Virus record (IMG/VR): IMGVR_UViG_3300033417_000005
Coordinates: 1 to 64,000 of that record
DNA: 64,000 nt
Reading direction: 5' to 3' (one strand)
DNA from: a virus
Taxonomy: Duplodnaviria; Caudoviricetes
The notes below the pieces were generated by a model that was not told the DNA's origin, ran no database searches, and saw only the letters and a list, made by a program, of their open reading frames with translations. This document shows positions 3,553 to 56,546 of this stretch, one piece after another. Positions within the stretch are counted from its first letter, which is position 1; each line of letters opens with the position of its first letter. A program made the position numbers and the translations under genes.

Positions 3553-4341
3553 ATGCCTCTGAATTACGCTGACGGTGTTGCGGCCCGGGTCGATCTAGGA
3601 AGCGGTTCGGATATCGACAGCCCGAATCTGCCGGTCCTGACGTGCATGATTTGGTTTTACCCGACGGTTGTCGCCACGTCGCCGACTCAAGTGCTGTGGG
3701 GCAAGAACACGACAAGCTTTGTGGACGGATTTCATTGTACGATCAATCAAGGGTCGATAAGCGGAAACATACAGATCCAGCGAAAGGGAGCTTCCGATAC
3801 CAGGTTCCAAGCCGTGACCGGAACAGTGATTCAAGACCAGTGGAATTTCGTCGCTGGCGTGTATCACGCTATCGATACAAATCCGGGCGGCGCAATCTAC
3901 AAGGGCAGCCTCACGGCCGCCGCGACGGAGCCAAGTTACGCTGTTCAAAACAGCGCGGTTACGAGTTTCAATAACGATTCAGCCGTCCCGCTCTATATTG
4001 GAAATACCAACGGGAACACGGCGCTCGAATTCCGCGGCGACATTGCGGCGTTCGCGATTATCGACCGGGATTTGACACTTGCGGAAGTGGTGGACTGGCA
4101 GTTTCGGCCTCGCGTTATCCCCGGCACGCTGGGGTACTACCGGCTCGGGGCCAACGGGACAGGCACGCAGCCCGATTGGAGCGGGAACGGGCGGGGCGGA
4201 ACCGTGACAGGTGCGACGCTTAGCTCACGTGGAGGCCCGCTGGGACCGTGGTTCGGATATGACGTTGGATTGCAAACCGGGGCCGCCGCTGCGCCGCCCG
4301 CGACGCCGTTCGACATGCTGCCGATGATGGGGGTTGGATAA
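3553..4341 (+). CDS. LamG/concanavalin A-like lectin domain protein
   Basis: LamG-type motifs TCMIWFYP, QWNFVAGVY, LYIGN, FRGDIAAFAIIDRDLTLAEV. Confidence 0.75.
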   Translation: MPLNYADGVAARVDLGSGSDIDSPNLPVLTCMIWFYPTVVATSPTQVLWGKNTTSFVDGFHCTINQGSISGNIQIQRKGASDTRFQAVTGTVIQDQWNFVAGVYHAIDTNPGGAIYKGSLTAAATEPSYAVQNSAVTSFNNDSAVPLYIGNTNGNTALEFRGDIAAFAIIDRDLTLAEVVDWQFRPRVIPGTLGYYRLGANGTGTQPDWSGNGRGGTVTGATLSSRGGPLGPWFGYDVGLQTGAAAAPPATPFDMLPMMGVG

Positions 4342-7426: not shown

Positions 7427-7809
7427 CCAAGACCCTCAAGAAGACTCTCGGTGAGCTGTATGGCTGGCCCCATGTCATGACTCACCGGGAGTTTCTTACT
7501 TGGGAAGAGTGGCTGCGGCAAGAATGGGATCAGCCCTCGCGGACGGACCATTACTTAATGCGTATTGCCATGGAGGTTGCTTGCGTGCTTGCGAAGAATC
7601 CAAAGAAGATCACCATGGATCAGTTCAAGATTCCTTTTGACAAGCCCAGTTCCAAAGGACGTGACATAGCTTCGCTAGAACCGAAGATCAAGATGACAAA
7701 AGAACAAGCGGCCTATGTTGCCAAGCGAATGTGGGCAGGTCGCCTCGGCGTTCCTCTTGAAAAGTTAAACATCATTCCAAAGGACGTTACAATGCTGCGC
7801 AAGGAATAA
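7393..7809 (+). CDS. Frameshift extension of tail chaperone (gpGT analogue)
   Basis: The -1 frame reads RTSRYTGGFRVAKTLKKTLGELYGWPHVMTHREFLTWEEW, a GT-like pattern. Confidence 0.8.
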   Translation, partial: RTSRYTGGFRVAKTLKKTLGELYGWPHVMTHREFLTWEEWLRQEWDQPSRTDHYLMRIAMEVACVLAKNPKKITMDQFKIPFDKPSSKGRDIASLEPKIKMTKEQAAYVAKRMWAGRLGVPLEKLNIIPKDVTMLRKE

Positions 7810-28874: not shown

Positions 28875-29336
28875 ATGCCCATCATTCACTCAAAGAGATC
28901 TGTATACGCAGGGATAGACCCCGGTATGAGCGGTGGGCTCGTCTGTATCGGCCCTCAACTAATCGTTACCCCCATGCCTCCTACCGAAAGAGATATCTGG
29001 GATTGGTTCGAGGCTCTTCCGCCCGTACGTCTGGCCGTGATAGAAAAGGTGCATTCCATGCCCCGACAAGGAGTGGCGAGTACCTTCAAGTTCGGTTGCA
29101 GCTACGGAGGACTGCGCATGGCTCTGATTGCTTCTAAGATCCCATTTCAAGAAGTAACGCCCCAAACTTGGATCAAGGGACTCGGGATTCCCGGTAAGAA
29201 GAAAACTGAATCTGGGACTCAGTGGAAAAATCGTCTCAAGGGCAAAGCGCAGCAATTCTTTCCGCAAGTAGGTGTGACGCTAAAAACGGCGGATGCACTT
29301 TTAATCGCCCGGTACTGCCAAAAAATCGGCAAGTAG
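28875..29336 (+). CDS. ruvC: RuvC-like Holliday junction resolvase
   Basis: GIDPGMSGG, VIEKV, ADALLIA. Confidence 0.85.
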   Translation: MPIIHSKRSVYAGIDPGMSGGLVCIGPQLIVTPMPPTERDIWDWFEALPPVRLAVIEKVHSMPRQGVASTFKFGCSYGGLRMALIASKIPFQEVTPQTWIKGLGIPGKKKTESGTQWKNRLKGKAQQFFPQVGVTLKTADALLIARYCQKIGK

Positions 29337-29355
29337 CGCGGTAAAATGCGTTTAT

Positions 29356-29429
29356 GTTTTCCGCTTACGAAAAGGTGAGCGGCGGATTGAAACACGCTTA
29401 TTTGCGGAAAGAATTGCTGCGCTTTGACC
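29356..29429 (+). CRISPR. Solitary CRISPR repeat (29356-29393) plus 36-nt spacer (29394-29429)
   Basis: GTTTTCCGCTTACGAAAAGGTGAGCGGCGGATTGAAAC; spacer is 32/36 identical to the reverse complement of 29240-29275, with 5' GTC PAM. Confidence 0.85.
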
Positions 29430-29527
29430 ACACGGGGTCAATGGTTTGGATCGTGCGCCCTCTGCTTTGCCGTGCGATCTGATTTTGCGGCCCCGTGTGG
29501 TTCTTACTAATCACCAGGAAAGTCGCG

Positions 29528-29635
29528 ATGAAACCTAGAATGATAATAGATGTGCTTTTGCTGCTGTTAACGTTTGTTTCTCTAGTGGGTATTAGTTTGT
29601 ACAATGTCGTTAGGCTATTGGAGAAATTTCGATGA
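29528..29635 (+). CDS. 35-aa membrane peptide absent from the track
   Basis: AGGA RBS; one hydrophobic helix; ATGA overlap with next gene. Confidence 0.55.
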   Translation: MKPRMIIDVLLLLLTFVSLVGISLYNVVRLLEKFR

Positions 29636-29853
29636 GCAATGAAAATCAAGTGACAGAGGACGAGTCGGACGAGAGTAGGTTTTTGAGAGGCTTTAGAAAG
29701 GCTTCCATCGCGGACTTGGAAAAAGTGGTCCGAAGGGCATTGGTGCTGGAGAAACATACGTACGCTGGGCGCGACACCGCAAGCTCTCTCTACCGTCTGC
29801 GGAAGAGTTTGGAGGGTATTTGGGGCCACGAGTTGCCAGAACTGAAGGAGTGA
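29632..29853 (+). CDS. Hypothetical protein
   Basis: GGAG RBS; coupled to upstream ORF. Confidence 0.6.
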   Translation: MSNENQVTEDESDESRFLRGFRKASIADLEKVVRRALVLEKHTYAGRDTASSLYRLRKSLEGIWGHELPELKE

Positions 29854-29856
29854 AAA

Positions 29857-30267
29857 ATGTGCCTGTCGGTAGCTGTTAATTATCCGGATTGTGTTTTGAG
29901 CAAGGGAGAGCACAAAGGATTTGAGTGGATGGTGGTACACAACGGCCACGGATACCGTTGCGGCTACGTGCGTCTCCCAGTCGGGCATCCGTGGCACGGT
30001 AAGTCTGATTGGGATCTCAACGCGAATGTTCATGGTGGATTGACGTTCTCCGAGCCGGATAAACCGTGTGATGGAGACCGACCGGACAATGCGTGGTGGA
30101 TCGGGTTTGACTGCGCTCATGGGGGCGACGTACCTGACCCGTCCTTGCCGGGGTACACAGACCTCGGGCTTGGGCCAGAGTTTGGAATAGTCCGGACCAC
30201 GGAGTACGTTGAGGAGCAATGTCGAGGCTTGTGCGATCAGGCAAAAGCGCGAGCTCGAAGAGGGTAA
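29857..30267 (+). CDS. Conserved hypothetical phage protein
   Basis: GYRCGYV...HPWHG...VHGGLTFS...WWIGFDCAH. Confidence 0.75.
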   Translation: MCLSVAVNYPDCVLSKGEHKGFEWMVVHNGHGYRCGYVRLPVGHPWHGKSDWDLNANVHGGLTFSEPDKPCDGDRPDNAWWIGFDCAHGGDVPDPSLPGYTDLGLGPEFGIVRTTEYVEEQCRGLCDQAKARARRG

Positions 30268-30324
30268 CTAATCACCTACTTTAGCTACCACAACTTGCTT
30301 GTGTTCAGGGAGTCGGGCGGCGGT

Positions 30325-30867
30325 ATGTCTCAGTTTACGAAACATCTAGAACGGTGGGGAAACTGCGAGCAGTGTGAGCTTCACAAGGTTCGTACGAAGG
30401 TGGTGTTGTGGAGAGGATCCAAGATTCCTTGCGACGTACTCTTTACAGGTGAAGCGCCCGGGCTGACTGAGGACATTGAAGGGCTGCCTTTCACGGGTCC
30501 AGCGGGGCGGCTGCTGGATCAGATTGTAGAGCGGTCGATACCCAATACCTTGTCGGTGGGATTTACAAATCTTATAGCCTGTATTCCGAGAGCCGTACCG
30601 GGTGGAAGCAAGGTGGGAGAACCTCCGCCTTGGGCTATTAAAGCGTGTGCTGATCGGCTGCGCGAGATTATTAAGATTGCGAATCCAGCACGGATTGTTA
30701 CCGTGGGTACGCTGGCGAAGAAGTATTTGCCGAGCAGAAACCTGGAACTGCCCGCCATGGTATCGATTGTCCATCCCGCCGCGATTCTACGGAGCAATCC
30801 CGTACAAAAGGAAGCGGCGATAAGACAGTGTATCATTACTCTAACGGAAATGAGTGAAGATCTATGA
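30325..30867 (+). CDS. Family 4 uracil-DNA glycosylase (Fe-S)
   Basis: CEQCEL; GEAPG..ED..G.PF.G.AGRLL; TNLIACIP; HPAAILR. Confidence 0.9.
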   Translation: MSQFTKHLERWGNCEQCELHKVRTKVVLWRGSKIPCDVLFTGEAPGLTEDIEGLPFTGPAGRLLDQIVERSIPNTLSVGFTNLIACIPRAVPGGSKVGEPPPWAIKACADRLREIIKIANPARIVTVGTLAKKYLPSRNLELPAMVSIVHPAAILRSNPVQKEAAIRQCIITLTEMSEDL

Positions 30868-31904
30868 AAGAGAATCTGCAAACCGTATGGCGCGGTCCTC
30901 ATGAAGACGGTATTACTCAGTCCCTGCTCTCGCGGTTTCTTATGTGCCGTGAACGGTTTCGGGTATTGGTGATAGAGGGTCTGGCTCCTATGGAACAATT
31001 CAATCACCGCCTTGAGTATGGGAACTTTTGGCATATCTGTGAAGAGCATTCGTCAGGTGGAGGAAACTGGACCGCTCCTGTAACGGCTTATGCAAAACAG
31101 CTCGCCCTCAGGTTTCCCGAAAGCAGGGAACAGATTGAACATTGGTGGCGAGTTTGTCTGCGCCAGTTCGAGATCTATGAGGACCTAAAGGGACCTGTAC
31201 GATGCAACAGCCTGATGCAAGAGTTCGTGTTTTCGGTTCCCTATAAACTGCCTTCAGGTCGTACCGTGATTCTACGCGGGAAGTGGGACTCCGTGTTTGG
31301 AGAGGACGACGGTATCTGGCTGCTGGAACACAAAACCAAAGGGACCGTGGACGAGCAGACCATACGACGTCAGTTGACTTTTGATCTGCAAACCATGTTC
31401 TACGTCGTAGCCCTCAAAGAGCATATACGAACCAACACACGAAAGGAGATGAAAGGGAAGAAAGTAGCCGGGGTGCTCTACAACGTAGTGCGCAGGCCGC
31501 TAAGCGGGGGTAAAGGATCTATCAGGCAACATAAAGCAACCAAGAACAAGCCGGGGGAGACGAAGGAACACTTCTACGATCGGGTGGCGAAGATCATTCA
31601 AGAAGACTCGGAGAACTACTTTTTCCGGTGGAAAGTGGTGCTTACGAAGGGAGACGTGGCAGCTTTTAAAAGGAAGTTTTTGAGGCCGATCCTTGAGCAG
31701 TTGTGCGATTGGTGGCATATTCAGGCAACGCTGACGCCTCCGCTTGCTTGGTATAATCGCAGTAATTACACGCACTGGCAAACTCCCTTTGAAGTGTGGA
31801 ATGTTTTGGAGAAGGGAGGCACAACAGACTTGGATGCGTACCTTACCACGGGGAATCGTGCGGGACTTCACAAGGTGAAAACCTTGTTTGGGGAACTTGA
31901 GTAA
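30864..31904 (+). CDS. PD-(D/E)XK exonuclease (Cas4/RecB-like)
   Basis: GKWDSV...LLEHKT; Q...Y motif. Confidence 0.8.
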   Translation: MKENLQTVWRGPHEDGITQSLLSRFLMCRERFRVLVIEGLAPMEQFNHRLEYGNFWHICEEHSSGGGNWTAPVTAYAKQLALRFPESREQIEHWWRVCLRQFEIYEDLKGPVRCNSLMQEFVFSVPYKLPSGRTVILRGKWDSVFGEDDGIWLLEHKTKGTVDEQTIRRQLTFDLQTMFYVVALKEHIRTNTRKEMKGKKVAGVLYNVVRRPLSGGKGSIRQHKATKNKPGETKEHFYDRVAKIIQEDSENYFFRWKVVLTKGDVAAFKRKFLRPILEQLCDWWHIQATLTPPLAWYNRSNYTHWQTPFEVWNVLEKGGTTDLDAYLTTGNRAGLHKVKTLFGELE

Positions 31905-31969
31905 CGCCACGCAGATGGAGGAGCGTGGATAATCACCCATGGACGTTACCATTCTAAAAGGGGAAGGCT

Positions 31970-32563
31970 ATGATGGCAGTGAAGCAGCGTAAGAAGAAAG
32001 AGGGACCTTTGAGCAAGAGAGACCGGATAAGGGAGTATCTGCAAGGCTGTCCTGATCTGAGAAGTATCAACGCGAAGGAAATTGGGCGTATCTTCGGAGC
32101 GAATTCTTCCGAGATTTATAAGGTGCGGAGGGGGATCTATAAGTCTAGGGCGTTCGAGTACACCAATGCAGGTCGCGACGAGATGTTGAAAGAGACGCCC
32201 AAAGAGTTGTCTTGTCGCAAGGAGCCGACGGGTAAGAGAGGAAGAGTACTGGAATACTTGAGAAACCAGCCTGACCTGGCGAACATCAAAGCTAGGGAAA
32301 TCGCGGTGAACTTCGGGGTGCATATTACGGAAGTGTATAGAGCAAGGAAGCTGCTTAGGGAGGAACCAGTCAAGCCACTTCTCCTGAGGTTGTCAGCGCA
32401 GGAACCTTCGGCAACACTCGCGCAGCAATCTCCAGCTTTCAATGGAGCCGGTGACGACGGGGAACTGATTGGCGACCTGGTTGCACTTAACAAGATGGGT
32501 GTCGACAGAGTACGGAGGGCTGTTAAGATCCTGGACCGTTTGAGTATGGAGGATATTCAATGA
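31970..32563 (+). CDS. Protein with two tandem HTH-like repeats
   Basis: RIREYL...AKEIGRIFG...SEIYKVR echoed by RVLEYL...AREIAVNFG...TEVYRAR. Confidence 0.65.
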   Translation: MMAVKQRKKKEGPLSKRDRIREYLQGCPDLRSINAKEIGRIFGANSSEIYKVRRGIYKSRAFEYTNAGRDEMLKETPKELSCRKEPTGKRGRVLEYLRNQPDLANIKAREIAVNFGVHITEVYRARKLLREEPVKPLLLRLSAQEPSATLAQQSPAFNGAGDDGELIGDLVALNKMGVDRVRRAVKILDRLSMEDIQ

Positions 32564-32853
32564 AAAAATCCAGAAGAAGAACGGAACTGCCTAAGGACTA
32601 CGAGCAGTATCTAATTCGGCTTACGGATGAGATCTTCGAACGGGCTTGCGACGAAATGAGCTGGACGTGGAACGAGCTGGCCGACCACGCCAACGTTAGC
32701 CGGAGTGCCGTAGCTCGGCTTGGCAACTACATTACTAAACTTCCTCGGCTTCAGACGTTCTACAAACTGGCAAGTGCGGTTGACATGGACTTGGAACTCG
32801 TAACCAAGCAAGTTGTTAAACTACGGACGGCGGGAAGTTTGAAAGTCGGCTAG
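32560..32853 (+). CDS. XRE-family HTH protein
   Basis: WTWNELADHANVSRSAVARL...PRLQT. Confidence 0.75.
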   Translation: MKKSRRRTELPKDYEQYLIRLTDEIFERACDEMSWTWNELADHANVSRSAVARLGNYITKLPRLQTFYKLASAVDMDLELVTKQVVKLRTAGSLKVG

Positions 32854-32925
32854 TTTCCGCTCGCCAATCAGCGGGCGGCGGATTGAAACAAACTACAGGC
32901 AGTGGGAAAGTTTGAAAGTCGGTTA
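32853..32925 (+). CRISPR. Solitary CRISPR repeat (32853-32889) plus 36-nt spacer (32890-32925)
   Basis: GTTTCCGCTCGCCAATCAGCGGGCGGCGGATTGAAAC; spacer matches 32818-32852 at 30 of 36 positions (1 gap), with 5' GTT PAM. Confidence 0.8.
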
Positions 32926-33068
32926 AAACGATCCCAGCGCGGGTGGGGCGGCGTTTCCAAGCTCTCTCGCTCGCCCGTGCTGGGTTTCACCGGGAGGGAC
33001 TCGGTTTCCGTACTCTGCCGAGTTCCTCCTTTATTGACGCGAAGACTGAGAAAAGGAAAATAGGCAGA

Positions 33069-33974
33069 ATGGTGAAGATAACCAAGGACGTGACAATGGA
33101 CGTTACAAGCAAGCAGCTTCGCAAAGGGTCCGTGAGCGGAAGGAAAAGGAAGTTACAAAGCTCCACGAAATCACAAAGCGTGATAGACCGTATTGCTCCG
33201 ATCAACTTTGGTGAAAACGATGGAATCAAGCTCAACCTCTATGGACGGAGCGGCACCGGGAAGACCACATTGTGGGCCACCTTTCCTAAACCGATACTGG
33301 CGGTGCTGGCTTCCGAATCTAAGACGTCGGGGGAACTTCGGAGCATCAATACTTCCGAGTACCGTAAGACGATCAAGCAAGTGGTGCTGGAAGACTGTGA
33401 CGAAATCGAGGAAATCTGCGCCCACGTGAAAGAAGCAAACTATGCTACTTTGGTATTGGACCACGCCACCGGATTGCAGCACAAGGTTTTGGCTGAAGTT
33501 CTAGGAATTGATAAAGTGCCGGAACAGCTTACTTGGGGGCTCGCCACTCAGTCGCAATACGGTCAGGTGGGGGTACGCATGAAGACTTATTTGCGCGCTC
33601 TGCTAGACGTAGAAATCAACGTGGTGATCGTGGCACAGCAAAGAGAATTTCTTACGGAAGGGGATGAGGGGGCAAGTGAGATTTTAGCTCCGTACGTAGC
33701 GAGCGCCTTGAGCCCGAGCACGTGCGCATGGCTCAACTCCTCGTGCGACTACATTGCACAGACCTACATTAGGGAAGAAACGCTGGAAAAGAAGATCAAG
33801 ATGGGAAAGAAGACACGTATTCGCAAGGTGCGCACGGGCAGCGTACAATTCTGTTTACGGGCTGCACCTCACGCCGTGTATACCACCAAATTTCGCAGAC
33901 CGAAAGGAGGAACGTATCCGGATGTTATTGTAGACCCTGATTATGACAAGATCATGCAAGTCGTGAAAGGATAA
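33069..33974 (+). CDS. AAA_24/Sak4-like ATPase (recombinase)
   Basis: LYGRSGTGKTT; LVLD; VIVAQ; start uncertain. Confidence 0.8.
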   Translation: MVKITKDVTMDVTSKQLRKGSVSGRKRKLQSSTKSQSVIDRIAPINFGENDGIKLNLYGRSGTGKTTLWATFPKPILAVLASESKTSGELRSINTSEYRKTIKQVVLEDCDEIEEICAHVKEANYATLVLDHATGLQHKVLAEVLGIDKVPEQLTWGLATQSQYGQVGVRMKTYLRALLDVEINVVIVAQQREFLTEGDEGASEILAPYVASALSPSTCAWLNSSCDYIAQTYIREETLEKKIKMGKKTRIRKVRTGSVQFCLRAAPHAVYTTKFRRPKGGTYPDVIVDPDYDKIMQVVKG

Positions 33975-34060
33975 GAATAAATCTCATCACCTACGGAGGA
34001 AGTAGACAAGCGACTTCACCTACGGAGCAAGGAAACGAGTTCCATGACCTATGGAGGATA
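33969..34060 (+). promoter_or_regulatory. csrA leader with three ANGGA motifs
   Basis: CTAC-GGAGGAA-GTAG hairpin, CACCTACGGAG and ACCTATGGAGG (the RBS). Confidence 0.55.
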
Positions 34061-34065
34061 AAGAC

Positions 34066-34242
34066 ATGCTGGTGCTAAACCGGAGAAAAGGGGAAAGGAT
34101 TATGATGGGTAAGGACGTCGTAATCACGGTGGTTGACATCCGTGGCCCTGTTGTGCGGCTGGGGATTGAAGCCCCGAAGGAATTGCGGATAGACAGAGAG
34201 GAAGTCCGTGTGCAGCGTTCGAAGAGTGACAAGCCAGTCTAA
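34066..34242 (+). CDS. csrA: Carbon storage regulator CsrA homolog
   Basis: MLVLNRRKGERIMMGKDVVITVVDIRGPVVRLGIEAPKELRIDREEV. Confidence 0.9.
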   Translation: MLVLNRRKGERIMMGKDVVITVVDIRGPVVRLGIEAPKELRIDREEVRVQRSKSDKPV

Positions 34243-55388: not shown

Positions 55389-56133
55389 TCACGATCTTAC
55401 GGGTGGCGCGACGAGATTTTTTGGCGCAAAAAGTTGAATATGTGACTCATTGACTCATGGAAAAACCAAAACTTACTTCGCGAGAAATGCTTCGTCGTGA
55501 CAACGCTCCACGTGGAAGACGGATTTTAAAAAATCGTGGTGCCCCACCCGCACACCACCCTTCTTAGGATAAAGAAAAGAATATTCTTTGTAAAGTATAG
55601 AGAATCTAATCTTAAGCATAAGTTCTTATTCTCTCTAGAAAGAGAAAGAAAAGAAGAGATACGATTTTATTCAGTAAAAAGAAGACTTCTTCTCTTAGAA
55701 AGATCAAAGAATCTTTGTAAAAAGTAAGACTTCTTCTTTTAGAAAGAAAAGAAATTTGAGTTCTTCTTTTGAAAAGAAAAAAGTTTCCGTCTTGGGTGTG
55801 CGCGTACGCGCGAGGAATCCGCTTTTGATTTCGTTTCGGTCCATGAACTTTGATTTCCGTTCGTTCCTAGATTCTTATCTTCGATTCAGTTTACCTGGAT
55901 CCTAGATTCTTATCTTCGATTCAGTTTATCTGGATCCATCTTTTCGGTTCTTATGTTTTGATTTCCATTCGTTCCAAAGTTTCGGTCCAAAGTTTTTGAT
56001 TTCGTTTCGTTCTTAGCCTTGGAATTTGGATCATCCATCTTTTCGGTTCTTGAGTTTTGATTTCCATTCGTTCGCGTTCCAAGATGTGGAAAGAATTTGA
56101 ACTTCCACTTTTGCGAAACGTGCCCGCAACGAT

Positions 56134-56183
56134 TTGGATTGGATTGGATTGGATTGGATTGGATTGGATTGGATTGGATTGGA
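56134..56183 (+). repeat. (TTGGA)10 microsatellite
   Basis: Ten perfect units. Confidence 0.95.
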
Positions 56184-56546
56184 AATGGAAGATGAATGAA
56201 AACCCTTGGCCGGAAAACGATTTGTGAATGCAAGCGCAGCGCTGTAACGTCCAAGAAACGGGGTACTTCTAAATACCTCAAAAGTGGCAAATAATCTACC
56301 AGTTTGTTAAGCTAGGCAAACCTAGGCTGAGGGGCCCAAATTTGCGACCTCACGCACTTTGCCGGGTTTTGGCATAAAACTAGCCACTTGCCATTTTAGG
56401 ACGTCAGATCCTAAATTTGGGTCCCTGAGGACAAATTAAAAAGCAAACCGCATTGCCAATTGCCAAACCTGAATTTTCAAAACGCTCTGTACAGCGTACC
56501 CTTCGCCTCGTAGCGACATAGCCCCATTGCCCCGTATGTCGGCTCG

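Follow-up and report, generated by a model that had tools for sequence, protein, structure and literature searches.

A solitary type I-C CRISPR repeat followed by a self-like, spacer-length tract in an uncultured phage: a possible one-repeat form of the virus-borne mini-CRISPR

Virus-borne mini-CRISPR arrays have been described in the portogloboviruses SPV1 and SPV2 (Medvedeva 2019, PMC6858448). In close relatives, their spacers find matches near the array or in adjacent genes, and the loci of the carriers themselves bear point mutations (PMC6858448). Mini-arrays without cas genes or leaders are also known from phages, and the reason for the proximity of guide and target has been stated as unclear (PMC6858448, PMC7099407). 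Further examples from phages and prophages are those of Faure 2019, which we take from the summaries given in PMC6858448, PMC11656645 and PMC7099407. RNA anti-CRISPRs (Racrs) are solitary repeats located on mobile elements, outside any array, and are defined without a meaningful spacer; RacrIC1 belongs to type I-C (Camara-Wilpert 2023, PMC10651486). The build of CracrVA1 combines one degenerate repeat with a spacer-like tract and a terminator (Liu et al., bioRxiv 10.1101/2024.10.29.618823). Cracrs match the promoters of host cas or toxin genes over at least 9 PAM-proximal bases and, as do the host CreA/CreR RNAs, employ host Cas proteins.

The DNA analysed here, referred to as the window, is the first 64 kb (64,000 nucleotides) of the 72,616-bp IMG/VR virus record IMGVR_UViG_3300033417_000005, an uncultured phage (Caudoviricetes) whose record is rated complete. 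The whole record contains two copies of a 37-nt CRISPR repeat, at 29357–29393 and 32853–32889, both on the + strand, whereas chance would produce none (0 in 100 shuffles). Each is followed by a spacer-length tract, and the resulting units are numbered 1 and 2. The features of both are as follows:

29357–29429, + strand: unit 1, a repeat (29357–29393) followed by a 36-nt tract (29394–29429), of the same build as unit 2
32502–32529, + strand: sigma-70-like promoter match (9 of 12 consensus positions plus a TG extension; a consensus match only), the possible start of a transcript covering gene and repeat
32560–32853, + strand: gene for a 97-aa HTH_3 (XRE-type) protein (Pfam HTH_3, E = 7.9e-5, 23.1 bits against a cut-off of 23)
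32815–32817, + strand: GTT at the PAM position of the phage's own copy of the guide sequence, differing from the canonical type I-C PAM, TTC
32853–32889, + strand: repeat of unit 2, a solitary 37-nt type I-C CRISPR repeat that fits the family pattern with 0 mismatches
32890–32925, + strand: 36-nt spacer-like tract, a diverged direct copy of 32818–32852 (30 of 36 alignment columns)
32933–32984, + strand: strong hairpin 7 nt 3' of the tract (−33.5 kcal/mol, z −4.0), a possible 3' cap in place of a second repeat
32992–33036, + strand: terminator-like end, with a 14-bp hairpin (−25.3 kcal/mol, z −3.5) and a U-rich run after it
33084–33098, + strand: perfect copy, found by motif scan, of a dispersed 15-nt motif, opening the Sak4-csrA unit

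The repeat of unit 2 lies at the stop codon of the HTH gene, as had been noticed in a sequence-only reading of this DNA, its first base being the last base of that codon. It forms an 8-bp stem (32857–32864 with 32871–32878) and ends in an 11-nt 3' tail (32879–32889), the expected crRNA 5' handle. In type I-C systems, the 11-nt repeat tail becomes the crRNA 5' handle once Cas5 has cut. Cas5 is the processing enzyme of this type (PMC7049708). The phage's own copy of the guide sequence makes up the last 35 nt of the HTH gene (32818–32852). The HTH protein has a single relative (80% identity) among 5.8 billion proteins, and none was retrieved for its gene from the JGI metagenome collection. The terminator-like hairpin at 32992–33036 is absent from a simple terminator scan because its loop is longer than 8. 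From the promoter match, the hairpins and the downstream motif, the HTH gene and unit 2 appear to make up a single short transcription unit. The 15-nt motif also has a weak copy at 31939–31953, ahead of the preceding HTH gene. A second, degenerate repeat 3' of the tract was considered and rejected: local alignments of either phage repeat or of a host repeat against the 120–130 nt downstream scored no better than shuffles, and the hairpin at 32933–32984 has no significant similarity to the repeat (P 0.27–0.56). Unit 1 has no second repeat either.

Unit 2 shares with the mini-CRISPRs of SPV1 and SPV2 the absence of viral cas genes, a host-type repeat, a single spacer that resembles the neighbouring gene, a mutated own copy and the lack of a host-like leader. 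Five substitutions and one indel, most of them PAM-proximal, separate the carrier's own site from the guide. However, known mini-arrays have at least two repeats, whereas unit 2 has just one, with no second repeat within 130 nt and a phage hairpin in the place of the distal repeat. It also differs from them in that its repeat is 76–89% identical, rather than identical, to known host repeats, in that its family is of type I-C and comes from Planctomycetota-like hosts, and in that IMG/VR yielded no sister phage carrying a perfect target. With RacrIC1 and other solitary repeat units, it has in common a solitary type I-C phage repeat on a mobile element, outside any array and behind a small gene, probably on one transcript. 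In contrast to Racrs, both copies studied here have a spacer-length, self-like tract. The build of unit 2 is that of CracrVA1, and the same use of host Cas proteins is proposed for it, but its tract matches the end of one of the phage's own genes, has no match in four candidate host cas loci and pairs with its own site over 7 nt beside a GTT flank. Silencing of host cas genes in the manner of Cracrs gained no support from the host cas loci examined; a 9–12-nt guide seed is absent from the cas loci of four MAGs and from metagenome cas loci, none of these being a proven host.

The repeat family was searched for by an exact-pattern scan of 185,579 species genomes and then by a metagenome scan. 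Among the species genomes, we detected a 38-repeat array in a Pirellulaceae MAG (G001), a 95-repeat array in a MAG labelled Actinomycetota (G002) and single copies in two Planctomycetota or Pirellulales MAGs, while the metagenomes yielded about seven more arrays and several solitary copies. The Pirellulaceae array is adjoined by cas1, cas4 and a Cas7/Csd2 fragment, and the 95-repeat array by cas1, cas8c (E 2e-49) and cas5d (E 2e-12). These neighbouring genes identify the family as a DNA-targeting type I-C, and a somewhat divergent one, since the Cas5d and Cas8c matches of the 95-repeat locus score below curated cut-offs. The proposals, made from the sequence, that unit 2 is a cas-less CRISPR unit of the same repeat family as unit 1 and that its type targets DNA rather than RNA are supported by the pattern match, by the lack of cas genes on the phage and by the cas5d, cas8c, cas7, cas4 and cas1 genes beside the arrays. 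One of the two guides is sense to its target and the other antisense, which also fits DNA targeting, a process that is blind to orientation.

Pairing in the 8-bp stem reaches 97.5% over 15 distinct members of the family, where 22 changes affect both sides of a pair, a result reached by 0 of 500 shuffles, and the four variable pairs covary. Between the two phage units, where covariation had first been noticed, it comes to one compensatory pair, two further changes being one-sided. The 11-nt tail is identical across the members, in columns that had been fixed beforehand by the search pattern. The repeat of unit 2 is 33/37 identical to a repeat behind cas1-cas2 in a metagenome locus (L212), that of unit 1 is 31/37 identical to the repeat of a further locus (L191), and the two phage repeats agree at 28 of 37 positions. 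No array with exactly the phage repeat was found in the 185,579 species genomes or in the metagenome scan. Rfam gave no match at gathering score, the sole weak one being CRISPR-DR9 on unit 1 (E = 4). Spacers of the family arrays are mostly 32–37 nt long, 36 nt being common, and both phage tracts are 36 nt long and start at the first base 3' of the repeat. Unit 2 therefore consists of a genuine solitary repeat of type I-C and a self-like tract of spacer length.

Other members of the family occur in varied settings. In the Pirellulaceae MAG (L105:885-1175), the cas operon beside the 38-repeat array seems eroded, with a 96-aa C-terminal Cas7/Csd2 fragment, cas4 and cas1 left, followed by unrelated genes. 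One metagenome I-C locus has a degenerate repeat between cas1 and cas2, just 5' of the cas2 start (L193:875-911), and another has one lone repeat after cas1-cas2, an 'empty' array (L212:2063-2099). Two Planctomycetota MAGs carry mini-arrays on contigs distinct from those with cas1 (L086 / G003:C125:16871-16903 and L090 / G004:C388:784-817), each consisting of one good repeat, a spacer of ~33–36 nt and one degenerate repeat; these may be crRNA-like regulators of the host. A solitary repeat of the same family directly follows a TGA stop codon on the minus strand of an ENA metagenome contig (L205:1380-1538), and is followed by a 15-nt copy of the gene's last four codons, ending in TAA; the flanking match measures 16–18 nt and is out of register. 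This locus looks like a target-site duplication around a single repeat and fits none of the models tried. Finally, a longer-looped repeat of this I-C family occurs in a pair of IMG/VR phages (38-kb contigs L035, at 4186–4260, and L021); its own 3' tail is reiterated two and a half times after it, and no spacer is present. This element lies immediately 5' of a csrA-like gene and downstream of a good −35/−10 promoter match. A CsrA-binding role for the GGA in the repeat tail, which this phage pair had prompted, was dropped, as the same tail is the invariant handle in true host arrays.

The tract of unit 2 aligns to 32818–32852 with 30 matches, 5 mismatches and 1 gap, the first 7 nt being matched throughout, exactly as initially reported. 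The mismatches fall at guide positions 8, 10, 12, 14 and 34, and an extra A lies in the run at 18–20. In the tract, synonymous changes leave the last five codons and the stop preserved, but because of the extra A its full length cannot correspond in frame to the end of a homologous gene. The tract of unit 1 is the reverse complement of 29240–29275, inside a RuvC-like gene that stops 20 nt 5' of the repeat, with guide mismatches at positions 3, 5, 8 and 34. Local self-match scores are 40 for unit 2 and 52 for unit 1, whereas 1,940 other 36-mers from this genome average 17; elsewhere, scores of at least 40 were reached only in tandem-repeat zones. All five substitutions in unit 2, and eight of the nine in both units together, are transitions. 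Type I interference is blocked by mismatches in guide positions 1–14, and these positions hold seven of the nine substitutions (P = 0.021), the pattern expected if self-targeting were selected against.

The unit 1 tract is followed by a hairpin (29426–29502; −41.2 kcal/mol, z −5.5) that begins within its last 4 nt. If co-transcribed, the 3' part of the RuvC-like gene and the unit 1 tract would form a duplex of ~34 bp enclosing the repeat hairpin (29220–29530; fold z −7.6), and this RNA duplex could mask the guide or serve as an RNase III site.

The flanks of the own sites are GTT at 32815–32817, as the sequence-only reading had given it, and GTC for unit 1, but their proposed role as PAMs is unsupported. 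The type I-C systems studied so far read the PAM 5'-TTC (PMC8406640, PMC7913775), and neither flank is TTC. It had also been argued that two independent GTH PAMs speak against chance. This argument carries little weight: at the unit 1 site, a Thr codon that is conserved throughout the RuvC family dictates G and T at PAM positions −3 and −2, so that two GT flanks are weak evidence (about 1 in 16). For the same reason, relatives cannot offer TTC at the unit 1 site. As the own flanks are not TTC, the guides would be active only if this divergent I-C variant reads another PAM. We searched for the PAM of the family, and for a link to a host, with 188 spacers from family arrays, and none matched the phage, ~200 loci or the four MAGs.

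Both units lie within a conserved replication module. The backbone RuvC-UDG-exonuclease-Sak4-(CsrA)-ORF-PolA is common to ~25 IMG/VR phages, and in the closest relative RuvC, UDG, exonuclease and Sak4 are separated by just 15–33 nt. In the studied phage, the gap between RuvC and UDG contains unit 1, a 73-aa ORF and a MazG-like gene, and that between exonuclease and Sak4 contains two HTH genes and unit 2. The extra genes of both gaps have no homologue in the loci of relatives, with the exception of an HTH protein, 50% identical, located elsewhere in one contig. No repeat of this kind was detected in 92 related IMG/VR loci (12 Sak4 loci and 80 RuvC loci). Units 1 and 2 are thus lineage-specific accessory elements at the edges of inserts within the module. 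The nearest relatives of the phage have protein identities of at most 66%; cultured phages gave no DNA match, and Sak4 identity there is at most 37%. No tyrosine integrase was found in the phage.

Perfect protospacers in relatives had been suggested as a check on the unit. None was found in IMG/VR with degenerate patterns covering both alleles, nor was any relative with a perfect or better target. A relaxed repeat pattern retrieved only coding look-alikes from IMG/VR, apart from the phage pair mentioned above. A plain local duplication had been named as the outcome that would speak against a guide. This check gave a divided result: no relative with the unit or with a perfect protospacer was found, and the tract length of 36 nt, the bias of the mismatches towards the seed and the published cases still speak against a plain duplication.

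We tentatively favour unit 2 as a one-repeat form of the virus-borne mini-CRISPR, which may direct the type I-C Cascade of the host against the allele of the adjacent gene found in sister phages. The small HTH gene and the repeat would be transcribed together, and host Cas5 would cut at the 3' base of the repeat hairpin. In the resulting RNA, the 11-nt handle and the 36-nt guide would be followed by a hairpin that the phage encodes and that stands in for the second repeat. On this guide RNA, host Cas7 and Cas8 would assemble, and the complex, with Cas3, would attack co-infecting sister phages whose end of the adjacent gene matches the guide. The carrier would be spared, its own copy differing at guide positions 8, 10, 12 and 14, being shifted by 1 nt in register and lacking a TTC flank. 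A live guide is favoured by the true I-C family repeat with its covarying stem and intact 11-nt tail, by tracts whose length and start fit the spacer range of the family, by the concentration of substitutions in positions 1–14, by the stable hairpin after each tract and by the published SPV1/SPV2 pattern of adjacent targets and mutated own loci. It is weakened by the lack of a second repeat, which deprives the RNA of a repeat-derived 3' hairpin, by the 1-nt indel, by the GTT and GTC flanks and by the failure to find either a relative with a perfect target or an array with the exact repeat. As interviral use of host CRISPR has already been described, the one-repeat format is most likely a variant of that strategy and not a new kind.

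A less likely but credible alternative is an RNA anti-CRISPR, in which the candidate repeat RNA, co-transcribed with the HTH gene, would soak up host Cas5 and Cas7 into useless complexes while the tract is filler from acquisition. The repeat is solitary with no cas genes nearby, and its position at the stop codon of a small gene recalls RacrIC1, which lies 11 nt behind acrIC5 on one bicistronic RNA (PMC10651486). HTH neighbours of this type are found in anti-CRISPR operons, two copies with different stems could suit two host variants, and the IMG/VR phage pair has a repeat of the same family without any spacer. Such a decoy leaves unexplained why each of the two tracts is exactly 36 nt long, begins where the repeat stops, copies the gene nearest upstream and has its mismatches biased towards the seed, and a self-like guide would be a liability because of priming. 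In another alternative, the phage would once have recombined, through spacer–protospacer homology, into a host array with a spacer acquired from its own lineage, and would have left it by repeat–repeat recombination; we regard an inert scar of this sort, with no current function, as improbable. This route predicts a gene end, one repeat and a host spacer in a row, the exact geometry of unit 2, where the own copy abuts the repeat start and the spacer copy the repeat end, both of them spacer-length and in direct orientation. Spacer–protospacer recombination is documented (Varble 2019, as cited in PMC7099407), a recombinational route has been proposed for leaderless phage mini-arrays (PMC6858448), the phage encodes Sak4, an exonuclease and RuvC, and the predominance of transitions is that of ordinary divergence. 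The same route cannot yield the order seen at unit 1, which is inverted and 80 nt from its copy, nor would it produce the short, out-of-register flanking copy of 16–18 nt in the ENA metagenome contig. Furthermore, selection is suggested by the seed bias and by a handle kept intact in both diverged copies, and the own site lacks the TTC expected of an adaptation-derived spacer.

The match of guide positions 1–7 to the own site had raised the possibility of repression or a roadblock through partial binding. In this scenario, resembling crlRNA or CreA, host Cascade would bind the end of the HTH gene without cutting it and block read-through into Sak4-csrA. Regulatory crRNA-like RNAs with partial matches exist, phages included (bioRxiv 10.1101/2024.10.29.618823), and in the ENA metagenome contig the first 16 nt 3' of the solitary same-family repeat match the DNA just upstream. 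Nevertheless, known regulators need at least 9–11 PAM-proximal pairs and a proper PAM, while unit 2 offers 7 pairs and GTT, and unit 1 is mismatched at three seed positions (3, 5 and 8). Unit 2 is already set apart from Sak4 by a hairpin resembling a terminator and by a separate motif, and the available host cas loci contain no seed match. Self-regulation is accordingly very improbable.

A further extension of the preferred interpretation, the interviral guide, is that units 1 and 2 jointly form a CRISPR-guided homing module that replaces alleles, for which we see only a slight chance. The target PAM sides of the two units face each other across a 3.6-kb stretch (29240–32852). In a co-infecting sister phage, host Cas3 would degrade the DNA inward from both targets, and repair from the immune carrier, via the conserved RuvC and Sak4 flanks and with the phage's Sak4, exonuclease and RuvC, would transfer the entire accessory block with its guides to the rival. 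Such a module, if real, would explain why the guides sit beside their own targets.

If the RNA of unit 2 is processed and loaded, one repeat with its guide and a hairpin would suffice to run a type I system, making for a very compact guide format. It would then also follow that lytic-type phages of Planctomycetota-like hosts turn host CRISPR on their sister phages, and the locus would provide a second, clean example of the unexplained closeness of guide and target known from SPV1 and SPV2. If it is a mere decoy or scar, unit 2 adds one more solitary repeat unit.

Other repeated sequences were observed in the phage. The dispersed 15-nt motif has 26 sites within 3 mismatches where 5 are expected (for example, at 7780, 33084, 34953, 35585 and 49662), mostly on the + strand and with many copies close to the starts of genes; a role as a promoter or operator of the phage is probable. 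The csrA gene (34051–34242) encodes a typical CsrA sequence, and CsrA belongs to the conserved backbone in ~10 related IMG/VR phages. Three tandem 29-nt units precede and overlap the gene (33987–34242), each carrying GGA motifs, and look like CsrA self-binding sites. A tandem-repeat cluster at 55680–56185 comprises a 22-nt unit, a 35-nt unit (97% identity) and (TTGGA)x10.
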